Positions 4,179-16,083 of a DNA stretch of 24,159 nucleotides are shown in pieces. The stretch lies in the NCBI GenBank assembly GCA_003646715.1, contig QMLL01000001.1, forward strand, positions 1 to 24,159. The letters are read 5' to 3'. Below the pieces are notes generated by a model that worked only from the letters and a program-made list of their open reading frames with translations, ran no database searches and was not told the origin of the DNA. Positions within the stretch are counted from its first letter, which is position 1; each line of letters begins with the position of its first letter. Position numbers and translations under genes: made by a program. Origin of the DNA: Deltaproteobacteria bacterium. GTDB taxonomy: Bacteria; Desulfobacterota; Syntrophobacteria; B119-G9.

Positions 4179-4457
4179 ATGATTGTAGATCTGGAAATTA
4201 GATGCCCCAAACTGGGGCATCAGGTAAAGTTTGACTACTGCGAAAAGGAGCAGATAAGTCTCCCGTGCAAAAGAATAATCAAATGCTGGCAAATTTACTT
4301 CCCGGTGGAGATTTATCTCAAGAAAAAGTTAACAGAAGAAGAGTGGAATAGGTGTTTTAACGAAAAACCCAAGGAAAAAATACTAACTTTGCTGGAATTG
4401 ATTGACGCAGCAAAGAGGAGGAAGGAGAAAAAAGGTCAGAGTAAAGATAAACTATAG
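4179..4457 (+). CDS. Small hypothetical protein with four Cys (C-x11-C-x8-C-x5-C), possibly metal-binding
   Basis: SD GGGGAGG 4162-4168, motif RCPKLGH...YC...PC...CW, a basic C-terminus and tight operon spacing. Confidence 0.7.
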   Translation: MIVDLEIRCPKLGHQVKFDYCEKEQISLPCKRIIKCWQIYFPVEIYLKKKLTEEEWNRCFNEKPKEKILTLLELIDAAKRRKEKKGQSKDKL

Positions 4458-4482
4458 CATTTAATCAGAGGAGGAAAGGGGT

Positions 4483-5466
4483 ATGAGGAGGTCTGAAAAA
4501 TCAAACAACAGGCGTTGTCAGATTGTTATAGGTCTTGTGGTCTTCTTTTCTTTTTTATTAGCTCCAGCTTTATCTTTTGCTTATCATGAACCAGCCCTTA
4601 ATCTTGGCTTTACAACGTTTCTGGATGGGGGCCCGCCCGCAGGACCAGGATTTTATTTCTCTCAATATTTTCAATACTATAACTCCGATAAGTTAACCGA
4701 CAGCGATGGTGATGAATTGTTGCCGCCGTTCGCTGATGAGGACCTCGATGTATTTATTAGTCTTTCCCAGCTAATATATCATTCGAACCAGCCAATACTG
4801 TTTGGAGGGAAATGGGGCTTCGAGTTGATCATACCCTACGTGGGACTTGATCTGGACTATGAGGTAAACGGGCCATTTCCTGAAGATAATGGCTCAGGTT
4901 TCGGAGATATTCTTATTGGGCCTTTTATTCAGTGGGATCCGATAATGGGTAAAAAGGGGCCTATCTTCATGCATCGTTTTGAGATTTCTGTGATAGTACC
5001 AACTGGCAAATATGACGATGACAAGGAACTCAATCCAGGGAGCAACTTTTTTTCAATTAACCCTTACTGGTCTGCGACTCTTTTTATCACCCCGAGATGG
5101 ACTCTTTCCGGGAGATTTCATTATCTCTGGAATGCAAAAAACGATGATCCCAACAGGCAGTTTGCGGGAGCGGATGATACACAGGCGGGACAAGCATTTC
5201 ATGTGAATTTTACCTCTGCTTATGAGGTAGTACCAAATAGATTCAGAGTAGGTATAAATGGTTATTATTTGAAGCAGTTTACAGATACCGAGGTGGACGG
5301 TCACGATATTTCAGATAGCAAAGAGCAGGTTTTAGGACTCGGTCCTGGCTTTGTGATCCACTTCTCAAGAGATATACATTTGGTTTTCAACGCATATTTT
5401 GAAACTCAGGTCGAAAACCGACCAAAAGGAGAACGGTATAATCTTAGGTTTTTGTATCATTTCTAG
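4483..5466 (+). CDS. SphA/COG4313 (phenol MetA-pathway-like) outer-membrane beta-barrel channel
   Basis: Signal peptide, LNLGFTTFLDG-PP-GPGFY, GFGDILIGP-IQW, PTGKYD, GINGYYLKQ-TD, VLGLGPG and a terminal aromatic residue (LYHF). SD GAGGAGG upstream. Confidence 0.85.
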   Translation: MRRSEKSNNRRCQIVIGLVVFFSFLLAPALSFAYHEPALNLGFTTFLDGGPPAGPGFYFSQYFQYYNSDKLTDSDGDELLPPFADEDLDVFISLSQLIYHSNQPILFGGKWGFELIIPYVGLDLDYEVNGPFPEDNGSGFGDILIGPFIQWDPIMGKKGPIFMHRFEISVIVPTGKYDDDKELNPGSNFFSINPYWSATLFITPRWTLSGRFHYLWNAKNDDPNRQFAGADDTQAGQAFHVNFTSAYEVVPNRFRVGINGYYLKQFTDTEVDGHDISDSKEQVLGLGPGFVIHFSRDIHLVFNAYFETQVENRPKGERYNLRFLYHF

Positions 5467-5853: not shown

Positions 5854-6888
5854 ATGACGGACTACTACGTTGATCTTGAAACGACTGCTGAAATTGTGAA
5901 AAAGATTCTTCCGAAAATGGGAGAGTTCAAGGTACCAATAACTCCCCAGAACTATCGCGTGTGGTTTGAATACTACAGCGGTACGAATAAAGAACTACTA
6001 GAAGAAATAAACTCAATAATTGAAGCAAGGCGAAAGTTTACACCAGAGCTGAACAGATATCTTTATACCAAGTACTTCGGCGATGATCATAATAAGGAAA
6101 TGCTTCGTGAGGTCCAGGCGAAAACCATAAATGTGCTCAAAAACTTTCTTGAACAGGTACTGGCTACAACCAATACTACCTCGGATTATGGAAACAAGCT
6201 TGAAAAATATTCAGAACAACTGAGCAAAGCGGAAGATCTTTCAGAGATTCAGGAAATCCTCGAAAACATGATCCGCGAAACCTCTCACATGGTGGAATCC
6301 ACTAGAGATCTTCACTCAAAATTACAGGAAGCAAGTAACCAGGTGGAAATGCTAAGAGAAGAGCTGGCAAAGACCGCCGAAGAAGCAAAGAGAGATGCTT
6401 TAACTGGGCTTCATAATCGGAAGGCCTTTGATGAAGAAATTGCCAAATTGTATAAGAGATACAAAGACAAAGGAGAGATTTTTTCTCTTATTTTTGTGGA
6501 CATAGACCATTTCAAAAGATTCAATGACCAGTTTGGACACAAGGTTGGTGATAAGGTATTACAGGTGGTGGCAAATAGCTTAAATTATACCCTGAAAGGG
6601 AAAGATTTCGTTGGCAGGTATGGCGGTGAGGAATTCGTGGTACTTTTGCCGCTTACGGAATTAGATAATGCCTGCCTTGTGGCGGAACAAATTAGAGAAA
6701 ATATATCGATTAAAAGACTTCGTGTGACAAAAACGGGAGAAAACCTGGGCACAATAACGGTAAGTGCAGGAGTCTCACAGATAAACGAATCTGATACAAT
6801 TGAATCTCTGGTTGAAAGAGCTGACAAAGCACTTTACCTTGCGAAAAATTCCGGTAGAAATAACGTCAAATCTGAAAAAGATCTATAG
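5854..6888 (+). CDS. Cytoplasmic diguanylate cyclase (GGDEF) with N-terminal helical/coiled-coil region, 344 aa
   Basis: RDALTGLHNR, DIDHFKRFNDQFGH-VGD, GRYGGEEF and ADKALY-AK-SGRN. The N-terminal PITPQNYRVWFEY segment is common in this DGC subtype. The start is set at ATG 5854 behind SD GGAGGAGG. Confidence 0.93.
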   Translation: MTDYYVDLETTAEIVKKILPKMGEFKVPITPQNYRVWFEYYSGTNKELLEEINSIIEARRKFTPELNRYLYTKYFGDDHNKEMLREVQAKTINVLKNFLEQVLATTNTTSDYGNKLEKYSEQLSKAEDLSEIQEILENMIRETSHMVESTRDLHSKLQEASNQVEMLREELAKTAEEAKRDALTGLHNRKAFDEEIAKLYKRYKDKGEIFSLIFVDIDHFKRFNDQFGHKVGDKVLQVVANSLNYTLKGKDFVGRYGGEEFVVLLPLTELDNACLVAEQIRENISIKRLRVTKTGENLGTITVSAGVSQINESDTIESLVERADKALYLAKNSGRNNVKSEKDL

Positions 6889-6902
6889 TTCCTTATATAG
6901 TT

Positions 6903-8996
6903 CTACTCTATGCAACTGGACTTTCCAAAATGTTCAGAGAATTCTGACAAATCGAGTTCCGGATTTTTTTCCGCCAGGATCGCAAGATCGACTCCATCCA
7001 CATCGCCGTCGCCGTCCATATCACTCGTACAGATACTGTGAATGGTTACGAGAGAGATTTCTGGATCACCATAGAGGTTAAATCCCTGGAGATTGAGCCA
7101 GATTGAAGGACTATTGTAAATCATTTCTTCCTTGGTTAGAGCCAGGGCCTGTCCACATGGTATGTCTTGAGCTAATTTCTTTAGATAGTAATACCCAAGA
7201 GAAAAGTTATCCGGATAATTCGGATTTGGTTCTGTCCATCCTGCGGTGTACCAGGACACTCTGGAGGCAGACACCGTTGCTATTGCTCCCTGTTTTAAAA
7301 GTGAGTAGCCCAGATTGCCTGAATTTTCAGGATAGCCGTTGCTGCAGGCGCAGAGGTAAACCATGGACGGATGAGAATCATCCAGCACTCTACTATCACT
7401 GGACGTGAAAAAAGAGGTTGTTGTTGTCTCGCCACTTTCAGGAGTATCATTTTGATTATCATCCGAAGACCAGTATTTTCTGTAAATACTCGTTGCGTTA
7501 CCATGTCCCACCGCGCAAACAAGACCGTACCCTGAAGCCCAGGAATCTTTGACATTTGTTCGGTTTAGGGGAGCATCAGAAGGATACGTGCTATGCTGAA
7601 GTCCTTCTTTTTCATAAAGAGAAAAGTGGGTAAAATCATTGGATTCTAGAAAATCATTTATTATCCTCTGAGCCAGTTCGGCCCCATCTGTCCGTGTAAG
7701 GTAGTCTGGTGGTTCTTGCTCAAAGTTCAATATGGCAGTGGGAAGCAAAACCTCTTTACGCCACGAAAGGTCTCCTGACTCTGTCTGGTAATCCATGATT
7801 TTTTGAAGTATGTGATCTAGTGTTGAATAGTCATCGTATACCGGTACTCTTCCTACCCATACCTCTGCAGCGTAGTCTACTCCTCCGGGCTTGTTATCAT
7901 CAGGATATTCTCCGTACAGTTCATCACCGTCAATATCCCAGTTGCCGGTTAGATCGGCATAATAGTAGTCAGTGAGAGCTTCTCGATGGCTCGATTCATG
8001 GCTCCTCGGATAGCATTTTTTCATCGGAACATCACCATTGGATGGGTCGGGGTTACCGATGAGAAGTACGTATTTTATCCCTAGATTTTGGTAGTTGTTA
8101 ATCAACCATTGGCGGATTTTTTCAGCCCTGCCGTCAGGTGGTGGCCCTGATAAACTGGTATAATCGTCCTCCGTGACAACCAGTACCGAATGACCTATAG
8201 CTTCCTTGAAACGCACGAAGTCAGATAACTTGGTGCTGTTGTTTACAACTGCATTGGAAGTGATTATTACGTAGTCATATGAAGTATCTCCCCCAGGTGC
8301 TATGTCGGCAGGTGCTGGATTTGTCCCCGAGTCGCTTTCGTTTTGCGGGGTCTCGCCCACTGTTGTACTTTGATATTCTAAATCGCTGGTTTCTGATGCT
8401 CCGAGAGTAATCTTGCACTGTATCTCTTTGACAACCTCTATTTTTCCGTTCCCAGGATAATACCTAACCGGATAGTAGGCCAAACGGAGAAATTTACTGT
8501 TCCTTTTGGTCTTTGTAGCCAGGATTTTAACGGGTTTCACCGGAAAGGGCCTGGATGAAGAGTAAACCAGAATGTTTTTCCCGTGTTTGATCTTTTTGGA
8601 TTTCCCCCAGTCCAGGATGTTTCCACGATCTGTTGAAAGAAGAAGAGGAGGGGAGGGTTCAATTTCATAAAATCCTTTTAATTCCTCACATTTTGTCCTG
8701 ACAATTTGAATACTTATGACCTCCAAACTTCGGCTCGCTGGAACTGGAATAAGTTTGATAATTTCGGGTAAGTTCGGATTTCCCGGATCCATCAAATACG
8801 ATCTGTCGGGGAGTTCAACTCGGTGAGTACCTTTACGCGTTTTAATAAAGTCAAGTTTCGGAGCCATGAACGACACAAAAATTGAGGAGCCGTCGTAATG
8901 GTAGCTATAATGGGATTTCGAAGAAGCTTTTGTGATGTTTATGAGCGAAAAAAACACCATCAGGTGTAAGAATACAATACAACTGAACCGTCTCAT
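6903..8996 (-). CDS. Secreted C25-family (gingipain-like) cysteine peptidase with propeptide and C-terminal dockerin/EF-hand-like repeat
   Basis: Signal peptide from ATG 8996 (SD AGAGGA), a C25 propeptide-like region, YVLLIGN, DYYYADL, VWVGRVP, the catalytic-dyad contexts VGHG and CACSNG, FNLYGDP, and the tail CTSDMDGDGDVDGVDLA...FG..C. Confidence 0.85.
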   Translation of the reverse strand: MRRFSCIVFLHLMVFFSLINITKASSKSHYSYHYDGSSIFVSFMAPKLDFIKTRKGTHRVELPDRSYLMDPGNPNLPEIIKLIPVPASRSLEVISIQIVRTKCEELKGFYEIEPSPPLLLSTDRGNILDWGKSKKIKHGKNILVYSSSRPFPVKPVKILATKTKRNSKFLRLAYYPVRYYPGNGKIEVVKEIQCKITLGASETSDLEYQSTTVGETPQNESDSGTNPAPADIAPGGDTSYDYVIITSNAVVNNSTKLSDFVRFKEAIGHSVLVVTEDDYTSLSGPPPDGRAEKIRQWLINNYQNLGIKYVLLIGNPDPSNGDVPMKKCYPRSHESSHREALTDYYYADLTGNWDIDGDELYGEYPDDNKPGGVDYAAEVWVGRVPVYDDYSTLDHILQKIMDYQTESGDLSWRKEVLLPTAILNFEQEPPDYLTRTDGAELAQRIINDFLESNDFTHFSLYEKEGLQHSTYPSDAPLNRTNVKDSWASGYGLVCAVGHGNATSIYRKYWSSDDNQNDTPESGETTTTSFFTSSDSRVLDDSHPSMVYLCACSNGYPENSGNLGYSLLKQGAIATVSASRVSWYTAGWTEPNPNYPDNFSLGYYYLKKLAQDIPCGQALALTKEEMIYNSPSIWLNLQGFNLYGDPEISLVTIHSICTSDMDGDGDVDGVDLAILAEKNPELDLSEFSEHFGKSSCIE

Positions 8997-14177: not shown

Positions 14178-14684
14178 ATGAAAGATTACTGGCAACCTTA
14201 TCTTGGCGGCGTAGCCCTCGGTTTTCTTCTTTTCTTTTCTTTTCTAATCTGCGGTAAGAGCGTAGGAGGCTCATCTTTTCTCACGCGACTGGCCGCGTAC
14301 TTTGTTCATATCGTTGCTCCATCTCATATAGAAAACTCAGCCTATTTTGGTCGATATTTTGCCGGCGCTAAAACACCTTTAAACTACTGGCTGGCCTATC
14401 TGGGTTATGGCACGTTTTTGGGAGGACTTGCATCTGCCTTTGTTCACGGCCGTTTAAAAATATCGATAGATAAAGGACCGAAGGTATCTCCCAAAGGCAG
14501 GCTGGCGCTGGCCATGTTTGGGGGTATCTTTGTCGGTTTCGCGTCAAGACTTGGGCTTGGTTGTACCAGCGGGCAGGGTTTAATTGGTGCCTCAATGCTG
14601 TCTGTTGGTTCATGGGTTTTCCTTTTTTCTGTGTTTTTAGGTGGATACGCAATTGCATATAGAGTCAGGGAAGGGTGGCTGTAA
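14178..14684 (+). CDS. YeeE/YedE-family sulfur-compound transporter, half-size subunit 1
   Basis: YW-PYLGG-ALG, four to five hydrophobic segments, GF-SRL-LGCTSGQ with the conserved Cys, and SD AAGGAG. Confidence 0.88.
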   Translation: MKDYWQPYLGGVALGFLLFFSFLICGKSVGGSSFLTRLAAYFVHIVAPSHIENSAYFGRYFAGAKTPLNYWLAYLGYGTFLGGLASAFVHGRLKISIDKGPKVSPKGRLALAMFGGIFVGFASRLGLGCTSGQGLIGASMLSVGSWVFLFSVFLGGYAIAYRVREGWL

Positions 14685-15292
14685 TGGGACCTGTAATAAA
14701 ATTAGCCGGGATGATAAATTCACCGGTAGACTTCTTTCTGGCTGTCTGTTTTGGTTTTTTCTTTGGATTTATCCTGGAAAGTTCGGGCCTTGCCAATTGC
14801 AGGAAGATAGCCGGAGTGTTTTACTTTTATGATGTTACCGTGGTTCAGGTAATGTTTACGGCAATTGTCACGGCAGTTCTTCTTCTCTATGGCACTTCAG
14901 CAATGGGTGTGCTGGATCTTTCACTTCTTTACGTACCCGATACATACATTTATTCTTATATACTTGCAGGCTTTATCCTCGGTGCAGGGATGGTTATGGG
15001 AGGCTACTGACCGGCCACATCTTTAACTGCCACGGCTGGCGGTCGGATCGACGGACTGTTCTTCGTAGTTGGAATAATGATCGGTTCCTGGCTTTTCTCA
15101 GAGCTTTTTACAATCATAAAACCAATCTATAAAGCGGGATCTCTGGGTAAATACTTTCTTTACCAATTATTCAATCTTCCGATCGGAGTTACGATTTTTA
15201 TTGTAACTCTGGCCGGACTCTGCTTTTTGTTCCTGTTTACTTTCCTTGAAACTCTTTTCGGAAAAAAGTTTGGAGGCAGCCGTGATTTATAA
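14684..15292 (+). CDS. YeeE/YedE-family transporter, half-size subunit 2, predicted selenoprotein (Sec109, TGA 15008-15010), 202 aa
   Basis: The ATG overlaps the upstream TAA (TAATG). ORFs 14675-15010 and 15077-15292 are in the same frame with only one TGA between them. The read-through sequence GMVMGGY-U-PATSL matches the family GxCPG(T/S) motif, and a SECIS-like hairpin follows. Confidence 0.85.
15008..15046 (+). promoter_or_regulatory. Bacterial SECIS element (YeeE-like gene)
   Basis: After the TGA: stem ACTGCCA (15026-15032)/TGGCGGT (15037-15043), loop CGGC with G at +24, and a possible lower helix CCGG/TCGG. Confidence 0.75.
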
Positions 15293-15677
15293 AAGGATAC
15301 TGATAGTTCTCATCTTAATAGCTTTGATTGTGGCAGGCTCACTGGCACTTTTGAAAAACAAAACTGTTTTGAGTGCACAATACAAGCGGTGTATGCAACT
15401 AACTAGCGAAGCGGATCAACTTTTCCTGAACAAAAAATACAAGGATGCCATAGAAAAATACAGGCAAGCTCTAATGATTGATCCGAAAAACCAGAAACTA
15501 TGGCAAAAGTTAATAGAAAGCATAAGAAAAGAAGCTTACTTGCAGGTTTCCGCTGCAAAACCCGCTATGATACCGCAGGTGACGAAACCTGAAACCAAAC
15601 CTGTTCAACCACAGGTCATAACACCTCCAGCACCATCTGAACCTTCCTTTGTGATTGAGGAAGACGAAGGCTGCTAA
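15282..15677 (+). CDS. Membrane-anchored protein with TPR-like repeat, Pro-rich linker and acidic C-terminus ending in Cys (-FVIEEDEGC), 131 aa
   Basis: GTG 15282 behind SD GGAGG (15272-15276), overlapping the upstream gene end. It has an N-terminal TM helix, ADQLF..KKYKDAIEKYRQALMIDP (TPR pattern) and a P/Q/T/V/K-rich linker. Confidence 0.8.
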   Translation: MIYKRILIVLILIALIVAGSLALLKNKTVLSAQYKRCMQLTSEADQLFLNKKYKDAIEKYRQALMIDPKNQKLWQKLIESIRKEAYLQVSAAKPAMIPQVTKPETKPVQPQVITPPAPSEPSFVIEEDEGC

Positions 15678-15683
15678 TCTTCC

Positions 15684-15715
15684 GTGGGAGACGTTCACAC
15701 GTCTCCCGTTCTTTG
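15684..15715 (+). terminator. Intrinsic terminator closing the yeeE-yeeE-TPR operon
   Basis: GGGAGACG-TTCACA-CGTCTCCC (15686-15707) followed by GTTCTTTG, directly after the stop codon. Confidence 0.7.
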
Positions 15716-15963
15716 TCTTCAGTTTTTCTCATGCATTGATTGGAAGGGGACCTTCCTGACTCTATCTATTCCTGTTTGATTGTTGACCAAAAGACCCTCA
15801 AAAAGCGTGAATTTCCCTAGATCCTAAATTTAACATAATATATCTTATCAGACGTTAATGATATGGAAAAAGATCCTTATGCCAACAAGATGCTTGAAAT
15901 AATTGGCCAGGATGACATTGTCTGGTAGTCCCTATTTACATGTCTGATCTCTAAAAAATCCTC

Positions 15964-16008: not shown

Positions 16009-16083
<75 letters not shown>

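Follow-up and report, generated by a model that had tools for sequence, protein, structure and literature searches.

In the structure of the YeeE-type channel TsuA, C293 lies in a positively charged periplasmic indentation which holds thiosulfate, C22 and C91 are cytoplasmic, and helix 7 reverses the topology of the two halves of the protein (PMC7449682). YeeD is fused to, or binds, the cytoplasmic C-terminal side of YeeE and acts there as a 'fourth cysteine' (PMC11073785). Split YeeE of the PmpAB type and selenocysteine (Sec) in the GxC motif of YeeE/YedE are known (PMC11582611, PMC13188914), and Sec-containing YeeE/YedE is already a listed selenoprotein family (PMC13188914). The papers on YeeE/YeeD, SoxT, the YTD cluster and cable bacteria define cytoplasmic acceptors only, namely YeeD, TusA and DsrE (PMC11582611, PMC13293266, PMC13047784). 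It has been suggested as a conceivable route that the periplasmic carrier cysteine of SoxY hands sulfur over to YeeE-type channels (PMC11582611). Here we describe a small gene, called the arm gene in the following, that lies third in an operon behind two genes for the halves of a split YeeE. It was found in a 24,159-nucleotide stretch of DNA (the window; contig QMLL01000001.1 of assembly GCA_003646715.1) from a Deltaproteobacteria bacterium of the class Syntrophobacteria, whose genome is a metagenome-assembled genome (MAG), 68.7% complete. Its product, the arm protein, ends in a cysteine and is a candidate third subunit of the channel.

The arm gene and the parts of the protein are as follows.

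15282..15677, + strand: arm gene, 131 codons plus stop, GTG start
15297..15353, + strand: uncharged hydrophobic helix of 19 residues (residues 6-24), a signal anchor or transmembrane (TM) helix, corresponding to TM6 of the fusions between a YeeE half and the tail described below
15369..15557, + strand: basic three-helix domain resembling a tetratricopeptide repeat (TPR), residues 30-92, recognized from the AlphaFold2 model, sub-threshold TPR matches and conserved residues
15558..15653, + strand: disordered spacer rich in Pro, Gln, Thr and Lys, residues 93-124, about 32 residues, with a low predicted local distance difference test score (pLDDT) and variable in relatives
15654..15674, + strand: acidic tail I-E-E-D-E-G-C, residues 125-131, with a free C-terminal Cys, invariant in relatives

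The protein terminates with ...S-F-V-I-E-E-D-E-G-C, followed by a TAA stop codon. AlphaFold2, supplied with a 109-row alignment, predicted helices at residues 2-49, 53-66 and 71-92 and disorder over residues 93-131 (pLDDT 90-97 over residues 31-90, below 50 at residues 99-118), and did not dock the tail on the TPR-like domain. By our count this domain contains 14 K/R and 7 D/E residues. Its best Pfam match was a single repeat of TPR_11, scoring 24.8 bits against a cut-off of 26.8 (E 1.8e-5); the domain is TPR-like in fold and falls below the threshold for membership in the TPR family. An earlier reading of the DNA made without database searches (the sequence-only reading) had described a TM anchor, a TPR, a Pro-rich tether and a terminal EEDEGC. 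Anchor, tether and ending are all present, and the tether is disordered in the model, as expected of a flexible arm. The TPR assignment is weak: there are three TPR-like helices, with one repeat under the Pfam thresholds.

Relatives of the arm protein share its tail. Six close relatives (54-99% identity) found in a word-indexed search all end P-S-F-[VI]-I-E-E-D-E-G-C. Further members, 39-52% identical and sharing this ending, came from an exhaustive phmmer search; one of them ends V-I-I-D-D-E-G-C, and the remaining matches were generic TPR proteins. A profile search returned 429 proteins, and 113 of the 113 newly listed ones end in G-C, nearly all in [ED]-D-E-G-C. Distant members, obtained when 401 genomes of the phylum were scanned, end V-I-G-H-D-E-G-C, T-I-K-P-D-E-G-C, L-Q-I-Q-D-E-G-C or K-I-L-K-D-E-G-C. 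The 109 aligned sequences, with a mean column identity of 36%, all have E129, G130 and C131, and at least 90% of them have D128; across more than 120 relatives the terminal D-E-G-C is invariant or nearly so. The spacer, free to vary in sequence, ranges from ~25 to ~110 residues in length. Residues A56, R61, A63, D67 and W74 of the domain are conserved family-wide. The internal Cys37 is not conserved: some members of the anchored subfamily, to which the window protein belongs, have Tyr or Ser at this position. A second near-invariant Cys is found in helix 1 of the other, signal-peptide-bearing subfamily, and this one is not conserved among the anchored proteins.

At the DNA level the pattern [VI]-I-E-E-D-E-G-C-stop had nine matches when one genome each of 185,579 species was searched, compared with ~0.3 expected by chance (our estimate). 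All nine are in arm-family genes of Desulfobacterales or Desulfobulbaceae MAGs. Scanning the 401 genomes for E-D-E-G-C-stop gave 17 matches against 5 for the reversed control. The matches at loci L089, L101, L102 and probably the RmuC-like L098 were discarded as chance hits in frames that are non-coding or unrelated (L, G, C and f numbers are our handles for loci, genomes, contigs and families).

These endings argue that the tail is under selection and is not a chance ending. As defined here, members of the DEGC-COOH arm family combine an N-terminal signal peptide or membrane anchor with helices carrying the conserved pattern A..R.A...D......W, a low-complexity spacer and the terminal D-E-G-C. 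Within the searches made it was seen in Desulfobacterota only. No Pfam or NCBIfam model covers any of its subfamilies, its members carry names such as 'hypothetical' or 'TPR repeat protein', and the Protein Atlas gave only the automatic label 'TPR protein'. In the literature searched we found no description of the arm protein, the tail or the fusions, and no paper joining YeeE with a C-terminal cysteine. The sequence-only reading would have fallen had the terminal Cys not been conserved; it is invariant in the 109 aligned relatives. The search for proteins ending in (E/D)EGC which that reading proposed led to a new family, one linked to YeeE.

The channel genes preceding the arm gene have the following features.

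14178..14684, + strand: YeeE half A, 168 amino acids, equivalent to the C-terminal half of TsuA (Pfam Sulf_transp, E 4e-17)
14684..15292, + strand: YeeE half B, 202 amino acids via TGA readthrough, corresponding to the N-terminal half of TsuA with a fifth TM added (Sulf_transp, E 2.6e-11)
15008..15010, + strand: in-frame TGA read as selenocysteine; TGA in 19/19 related loci of 57-100% protein identity
15026..15043, + strand: hairpin resembling a selenocysteine insertion sequence (SECIS), 7 pairs, loop CGGC, 16 nucleotides past the TGA, read from the sequence

With two half-size Sulf_transp genes, the TGA and the downstream hairpin, the pair has the make-up of a Sec-containing split YeeE of the PmpAB-like kind. 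Pairing in the SECIS-like hairpin is kept across the related loci by G-U/G-C changes. Since searches of halves A and B against the chains of the PDB returned no YeeE entry, the mapping onto TsuA rests on NCBIfam profile coordinates: residues 71-161 of half A align to positions 240-325 of the Spirochaeta-type TsuA model, and residues 20-118 of half B to positions 5-100. Accordingly placed, Cys129 in the GLGCTSG motif of half A is the equivalent of TsuA C293, and Cys39 and Sec109 (GGYUPATS) of half B are 70 residues apart, as are TsuA C22/C91.

Numbers of loci given here count related genomes and not independent events; the independent lines of evidence are the four architectures (anchored, secreted, YeeE-fused and rhodanese-fused) and the differing flanks. 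The anchored form (19 sequences including the window protein) always stands directly after half A and half B(TGA). Every complete locus has half A ahead of the arm gene, and tblastn found A, B and arm in this order in every locus with enough sequence. At least four different contexts flank the module: Hist_deacetyl/PTS_2-RNA and DHH/RNase H genes in the window's clade, and elsewhere a Sel1 protein, an FAD-oxidoreductase/AFOR set or CbiA/ABC genes. In the window's class the arm family was confined to the window's own genus (3/122 genomes). Because the order is constant, the flanks differ and only one genus of the class has them, the three genes appear to travel as a module. The occurrence of the module in this single genus and, with different flanks, in other Desulfobacterota MAGs suggests horizontal transfer as a unit.

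The signal-peptide form is the much larger subfamily, with more than 100 sequences. Its gene is located at most ~35 nucleotides upstream of a full-length YeeE of 394-400 amino acids in families f75, f60 and f29 and on metagenome contigs, and two small genes downstream of YeeE in family f36. DsrE-like genes occur to either side of it, and a CCG-domain (CCG/Hdr-like) protein and exported rhodaneses are encoded nearby. One contig combines the arm gene with TusA and three small open reading frames (ORFs), and another contains two separate rhodanese-arm-YeeE modules. Adjacency or fusion to YeeE was thus seen in the window and in most lineages, the exception being family f22, where the gene conserved downstream encodes an exported single-domain rhodanese. 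In f22 this rhodanese is followed by a DUF4147/MOFRL kinase-like gene and Dpp-type ABC ATPases. At least three f22 genomes, from two genera (L056, L058, L060), also have a divergently oriented selA, the gene for selenocysteine synthase, at a distance of ~2.5 kb.

Two further observations concern genes close to the arm gene. At three loci (L019:954-2288 (+), L087:5648-6958 and L088:277-1707) the arm gene is preceded by a gene for an exported multi-rhodanese that an in-frame TGA splits within the active-site loop (..FYCGGPT-TGA-x-MSPK..); its product is probably a Cys-x4-Sec rhodanese selenoprotein. On L088 a second full-length YeeE paralogue (5864-7139) is broken by an AT-rich insert of ~200 nucleotides with inverted repeats and has a divergent end; it resembles a pseudogene or the site of a small mobile-element insertion. 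The signal-peptide arm of this locus had at one stage been taken to be paired with a split YeeE; the apparent split is the full-length paralogue disrupted by the insertion, and the pairing was rejected.

The tail is also joined directly to the channel. In genome G260 we found a fusion protein of 268 amino acids whose first 193 residues are 41% identical to half B of the window (E 1e-50). It has Cys instead of Sec and the same overlap between the stop of A and the start of B, and after half B it continues with an extra hydrophobic helix, a K/P/A-rich spacer and ...A-V-I-I-E-D-E-G-C. Orthologues in three other genera (69-76% identity; four genera in all) keep the tail. Since the fusions of a YeeE half with the tail have no TPR-like domain, the conserved core is reduced to YeeE half B, one TM helix, the spacer and DEGC. 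The window encodes this core as two genes. The expectation of the sequence-only reading that homologues would be linked to YeeE genes was therefore borne out, across contexts and architectures and by direct fusion.

Some variants of these genes deserve mention. In one fusion gene (L110, G140:C36:16355-17161, + strand) the spacer is interrupted by an in-frame TGA located 11 codons from the end (..KTEKPA-TGA-FRFEIVEDEGC); the TGA could be a real stop, an error or Sec, and the codons of the tail are intact. The G260 fusion gene is followed (L106:4430-5487, - strand) by genes for a thioredoxin-2-type thioredoxin and a glutaredoxin::ferredoxin-thioredoxin-reductase-beta fusion, which hints at a cytoplasmic supply of reductant for this channel. 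In family f14 (L121, G009:C56; also G088, G122 and G214) half B continues into an extra hydrophobic segment and three rhodanese domains, ~690 amino acids in all. To judge from such proteins, the C-terminus of half B may be a recurrent attachment point for sulfur-transfer modules.

The fourth architecture is encoded by the genome of the window itself. Its contig C211 (L138:36-1097, + strand) carries a gene for a tandem rhodanese of 353 amino acids with a signal peptide, a Pro-rich spacer and the ending ...P-E-F-T-I-E-E-D-E-G-C. The gene is convergent with that of a 557-residue multihaem cytochrome c, and a second CxxCH-rich ORF is near (1237-2910 and 4195-4920, both - strand). These genes may form a periplasmic sulfur-redox module using the same arm.

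Several of the above forms bear on the side of the membrane at which the arm is located. The signal-peptide forms have a positive n-region, and 93 of 104 have a c-region that contains Pro, with small residues ahead of the cleavage site; in the first 15 residues of the mature protein K+R averages 2.5 and D+E 3.0. By these signals they are predicted to be ordinary exported proteins. For the fusion, AlphaFold2 gave the helix order TM, short helix, TM, twice, then TM5 (166-191), TM6 (202-222) and disorder, and the tail therefore exits on the side of the N-terminus of the half. The model has a pLDDT of 62 and only its helix order was used; a Foldseek search with it against the PDB gave no meaningful match. 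In TsuA the N-terminus is periplasmic, as its nine TM helices lead us to infer, and by homology so is that of half B. The loop before TM6 of the fusions contains 4-5 K/R, compared with 1-3 after TM6, and its counterpart in the window is made up of the C-terminus of half B (K-K-x-x-x-x-R) and the N-terminus of the arm protein (K-R). The loop between TM2 and TM3 of half A has six K/R, which in our reading fits the same orientation. Based on the exported homologues, the tail on the exported rhodanese, the topology of the fusion and the mapping onto TsuA, the arm is quite probably on the periplasmic face, beside A-Cys129 and opposite the Cys39/Sec109 pair. The same four points argue against the proposal of the sequence-only reading that the arm replaces a cytoplasmic TusA/YeeD and feeds the Cys/Sec pair.

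The explanation that we favour, with somewhat more confidence than doubt, is that the arm protein is a third, dedicated subunit of the split Sec-containing YeeE/PmpAB-type channel, a carrier arm contributing a periplasmic 'zeroth cysteine'. The single N-terminal helix would tether the arm at the periplasmic face of the membrane, and the spacer of ~32 residues, up to roughly 10 nm when extended by our estimate, would let the tip sweep the periplasm around the channel. The thiol of Cys131 would be loaded with sulfane sulfur or thiosulfonate, either by exported rhodaneses or by direct reaction with polysulfide or thiosulfate. Guided by the acidic heptapeptide and its terminal carboxylate, the loaded tip could then enter the outer funnel, which is positively charged, beside A-Cys129, to which the sulfur would be passed, and from there to Sec109/Cys39 of half B. 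An arm of this kind at the entry would mirror the 'fourth cysteine' provided by YeeD at the cytoplasmic exit. The covalent carriage of sulfur, the docking in the funnel, the direction of transfer and the orientation of the anchored subfamily are what we infer, and the carrier-arm reading as such is plausible. A complex prediction for a full-length YeeE and the adjacent mature arm of a related genome, run with alignments of our own, had a score of 0.00 and speaks neither for nor against binding.

A number of findings weigh against a periplasmic carrier. No RNA run among the sequencing data sets contains the arm locus. In family f22, where 8 of 12 sampled genomes have the gene, YeeE is missing from the surrounding 9 kb. 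The thiol should have a raised pKa in acidic surroundings, unlike in known persulfide carriers. None of the 19 anchored forms has a Pro or a c-region in the helix, and in this subfamily K/R averages 3.8 in the 15 residues past the helix as against 1.7 before it, a bias consistent in 19/19 members; by the positive-inside rule these charges, taken alone, favour a cytoplasmic C-terminus. A long hydrophobic helix lacking a cleavage region, oriented N-out/C-in, would make the arm a cytoplasmic acceptor which takes sulfur or selenium from the Cys39/Sec109 pair in place of YeeD/TusA. N-out anchors of the ZipA type followed by P/Q-rich linkers exist. The operon has no TusA or DsrE gene, whereas signal-peptide forms adjoin DsrE or TusA, and this too would suit a cytoplasmic acceptor. 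The statement of the sequence-only reading that the TusA/YeeD partner is absent is correct for the operon only: no TusA was found in the MAG, 68.7% complete, but the two other genomes of the genus have TusA genes at other places. More than 100 relatives export the homologous domain and tail and the tail also sits on a rhodanese exported by the same organism, the topology of the fusion puts the tail opposite the C22/C91-type loops, and the N-terminal K-R of the window's arm protein would have to cross the membrane. We therefore regard the cytoplasmic acceptor as unlikely.

Other roles can be imagined for the tail. It could be a gate or redox switch, in which the acidic tail plugs the outer funnel as a mimic of thiosulfate and a reversible Cys-Cys disulfide opens or closes the channel according to the redox or sulfur state of the periplasm. 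In line with this, the tail combines strong acidity with a terminal carboxylate, TsuA has an anion bound next to C293 in its positively charged periplasmic indentation (PMC7449682), and the helix-1 Cys of the signal-peptide forms could form an intramolecular disulfide. That Cys is not conserved in the anchored subfamily, however, and the tail on an exported tandem rhodanese and the pairing with a rhodanese in f22, where YeeE is missing, fit sulfur transfer better, which makes a switch distinctly doubtful. It is very unlikely that the arm is specific for selenium, picking up selenide or selenotrisulfide on behalf of a selenium importer like YedE. The YedE/FdhT model matches half A with a better score (E 3.8e-10) than the TsuA model does, Sec is part of the channel, selenoproteins abound in the organism and selA is near the arm gene in f22; yet all informative neighbours belong to sulfur trafficking (DsrE, TusA, rhodanese, CCG/Hdr-like), the proximity of selA is synteny within one family, and Sec in the channel is no evidence of a selenium substrate. 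Finally, the EEDEGC-COOH end could chelate a metal, acidic residues and a thiol being good ligands, or could bind a TPR carboxylate clamp in the manner of EEVD and so mediate self-association. The tail resembles the IEEVD-COOH of Hsp70/Hsp90, and a basic TPR-like domain is present in the same protein. We give this very little credence: the fusions and the rhodanese carry the tail without a TPR domain, three helices are too few for a clamp, AlphaFold2 leaves the tail undocked, and the context is sulfur metabolism and not metal homeostasis. Identity of the arm protein with Chp1 or Chp2 of the YTD cluster was considered and ruled out, since both have meanwhile been assigned to DsrEFH type II as DsrF/H-like subunits (PMC13490349, PMC13293266).

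The remaining features around the arm gene agree with a gene at the end of an operon.

15272..15276, + strand: Shine-Dalgarno sequence GGAGG of the arm gene, five bases before GTG 15282 (direct reading of the sequence)
15684..15719, + strand: element resembling an intrinsic terminator, with a hairpin of 11 pairs and a T-tract at 15684-15709, 7 nucleotides past the stop of the arm gene; closes the three-gene operon
16009-16083: tRNA-Gly, the next feature after the terminator

The start of the arm gene overlaps the gene of half B, which stops at TAA 15290-15292, by 11 nucleotides. The codon at 15282 is ATG in relatives of the arm gene, and for this reason GTG 15282 and not the upstream TTG 15246 was taken as the start. 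With overlapping start, ribosome binding site and terminator all present, the arm gene stands as the real third gene of the yeeE operon, as the sequence-only reading had it. Beyond the operon follow the tRNA-Gly gene and then DHH and RNase H genes. The locus was present in 20 DNA runs from marine sediment and hydrothermal vents.

Tentatively, DEGC-COOH arms might be a general periplasmic sulfur-presenting device of Desulfobacterota, occurring free-standing, anchored, fused to YeeE or fused to rhodanese, a generalization which we consider less likely than not. If true, the chain of cysteines would start outside the membrane, leading from the Cys of the arm via the C293-type Cys and the Sec/Cys pair to cytoplasmic DsrE/TusA, and the selenocysteine of the split channel would gain a defined relay position in it. 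The YeeE channels concerned would take up protein-presented sulfane sulfur and not free anions, and the missing periplasmic donor would be supplied for sulfur import in disproportionation, in sulfide oxidation by cable bacteria and in sHdr pathways. The arm family offers a concrete, testable candidate for the outside partner at the outer mouth of YeeE. It also provides a rule for the annotation of hundreds of 'hypothetical' or 'TPR' proteins: small, exported or anchored, ending in DEGC and encoded beside yeeE.

Among known systems, SoxY of SoxYZ is similar in being exported and in having a sulfur-carrying Cys at the tip of a flexible C-terminal arm, a property that is predicted for the arm protein. 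SoxY is a beta-sandwich protein with a GGCGG motif and SoxZ as an obligate partner, whereas the arm protein has a helical body, a long disordered spacer, an acidic tail and a terminal Cys. It has no Pfam or NCBIfam match of the SoxY type (PF13501) and its AlphaFold2 model is all-helical. In place of GGCGG its Cys is the last residue after a single Gly, and in place of SoxZ or other sox neighbours it adjoins the two YeeE halves and then tRNA-Gly, DHH and RNase H. YeeD/TsuB and TusA resemble it as small cysteine proteins beside YeeE, sometimes fused to YeeE (PMC11073785). They have the TusA fold with a CPxP cysteine, and are soluble and situated at the cytoplasmic exit, whereas the arm is most likely at the periplasmic entry; the arm protein has no Pfam match to TusA (PF01206) and no CPxP motif. 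DsrC/TusE likewise shuttles sulfur between enzymes by a redox-active Cys on a flexible C-terminal arm. It is cytoplasmic, with the DsrC fold and two Cys ten residues apart, one of them penultimate, in contrast to the single terminal Cys of the arm protein, which is not homologous and has no Pfam or NCBIfam match to this family (PF04358). PmpAB and Sec-YeeE are matched by the two upstream genes, which form a PmpA/PmpB-like pair, but in the literature searched no third subunit or C-terminal cysteine arm has been described for them, and here the arm is present. From these comparisons of sequence, the channel of this locus is of a kind already known, and the new component appears to be the arm, a non-homologous family of putative carriers.

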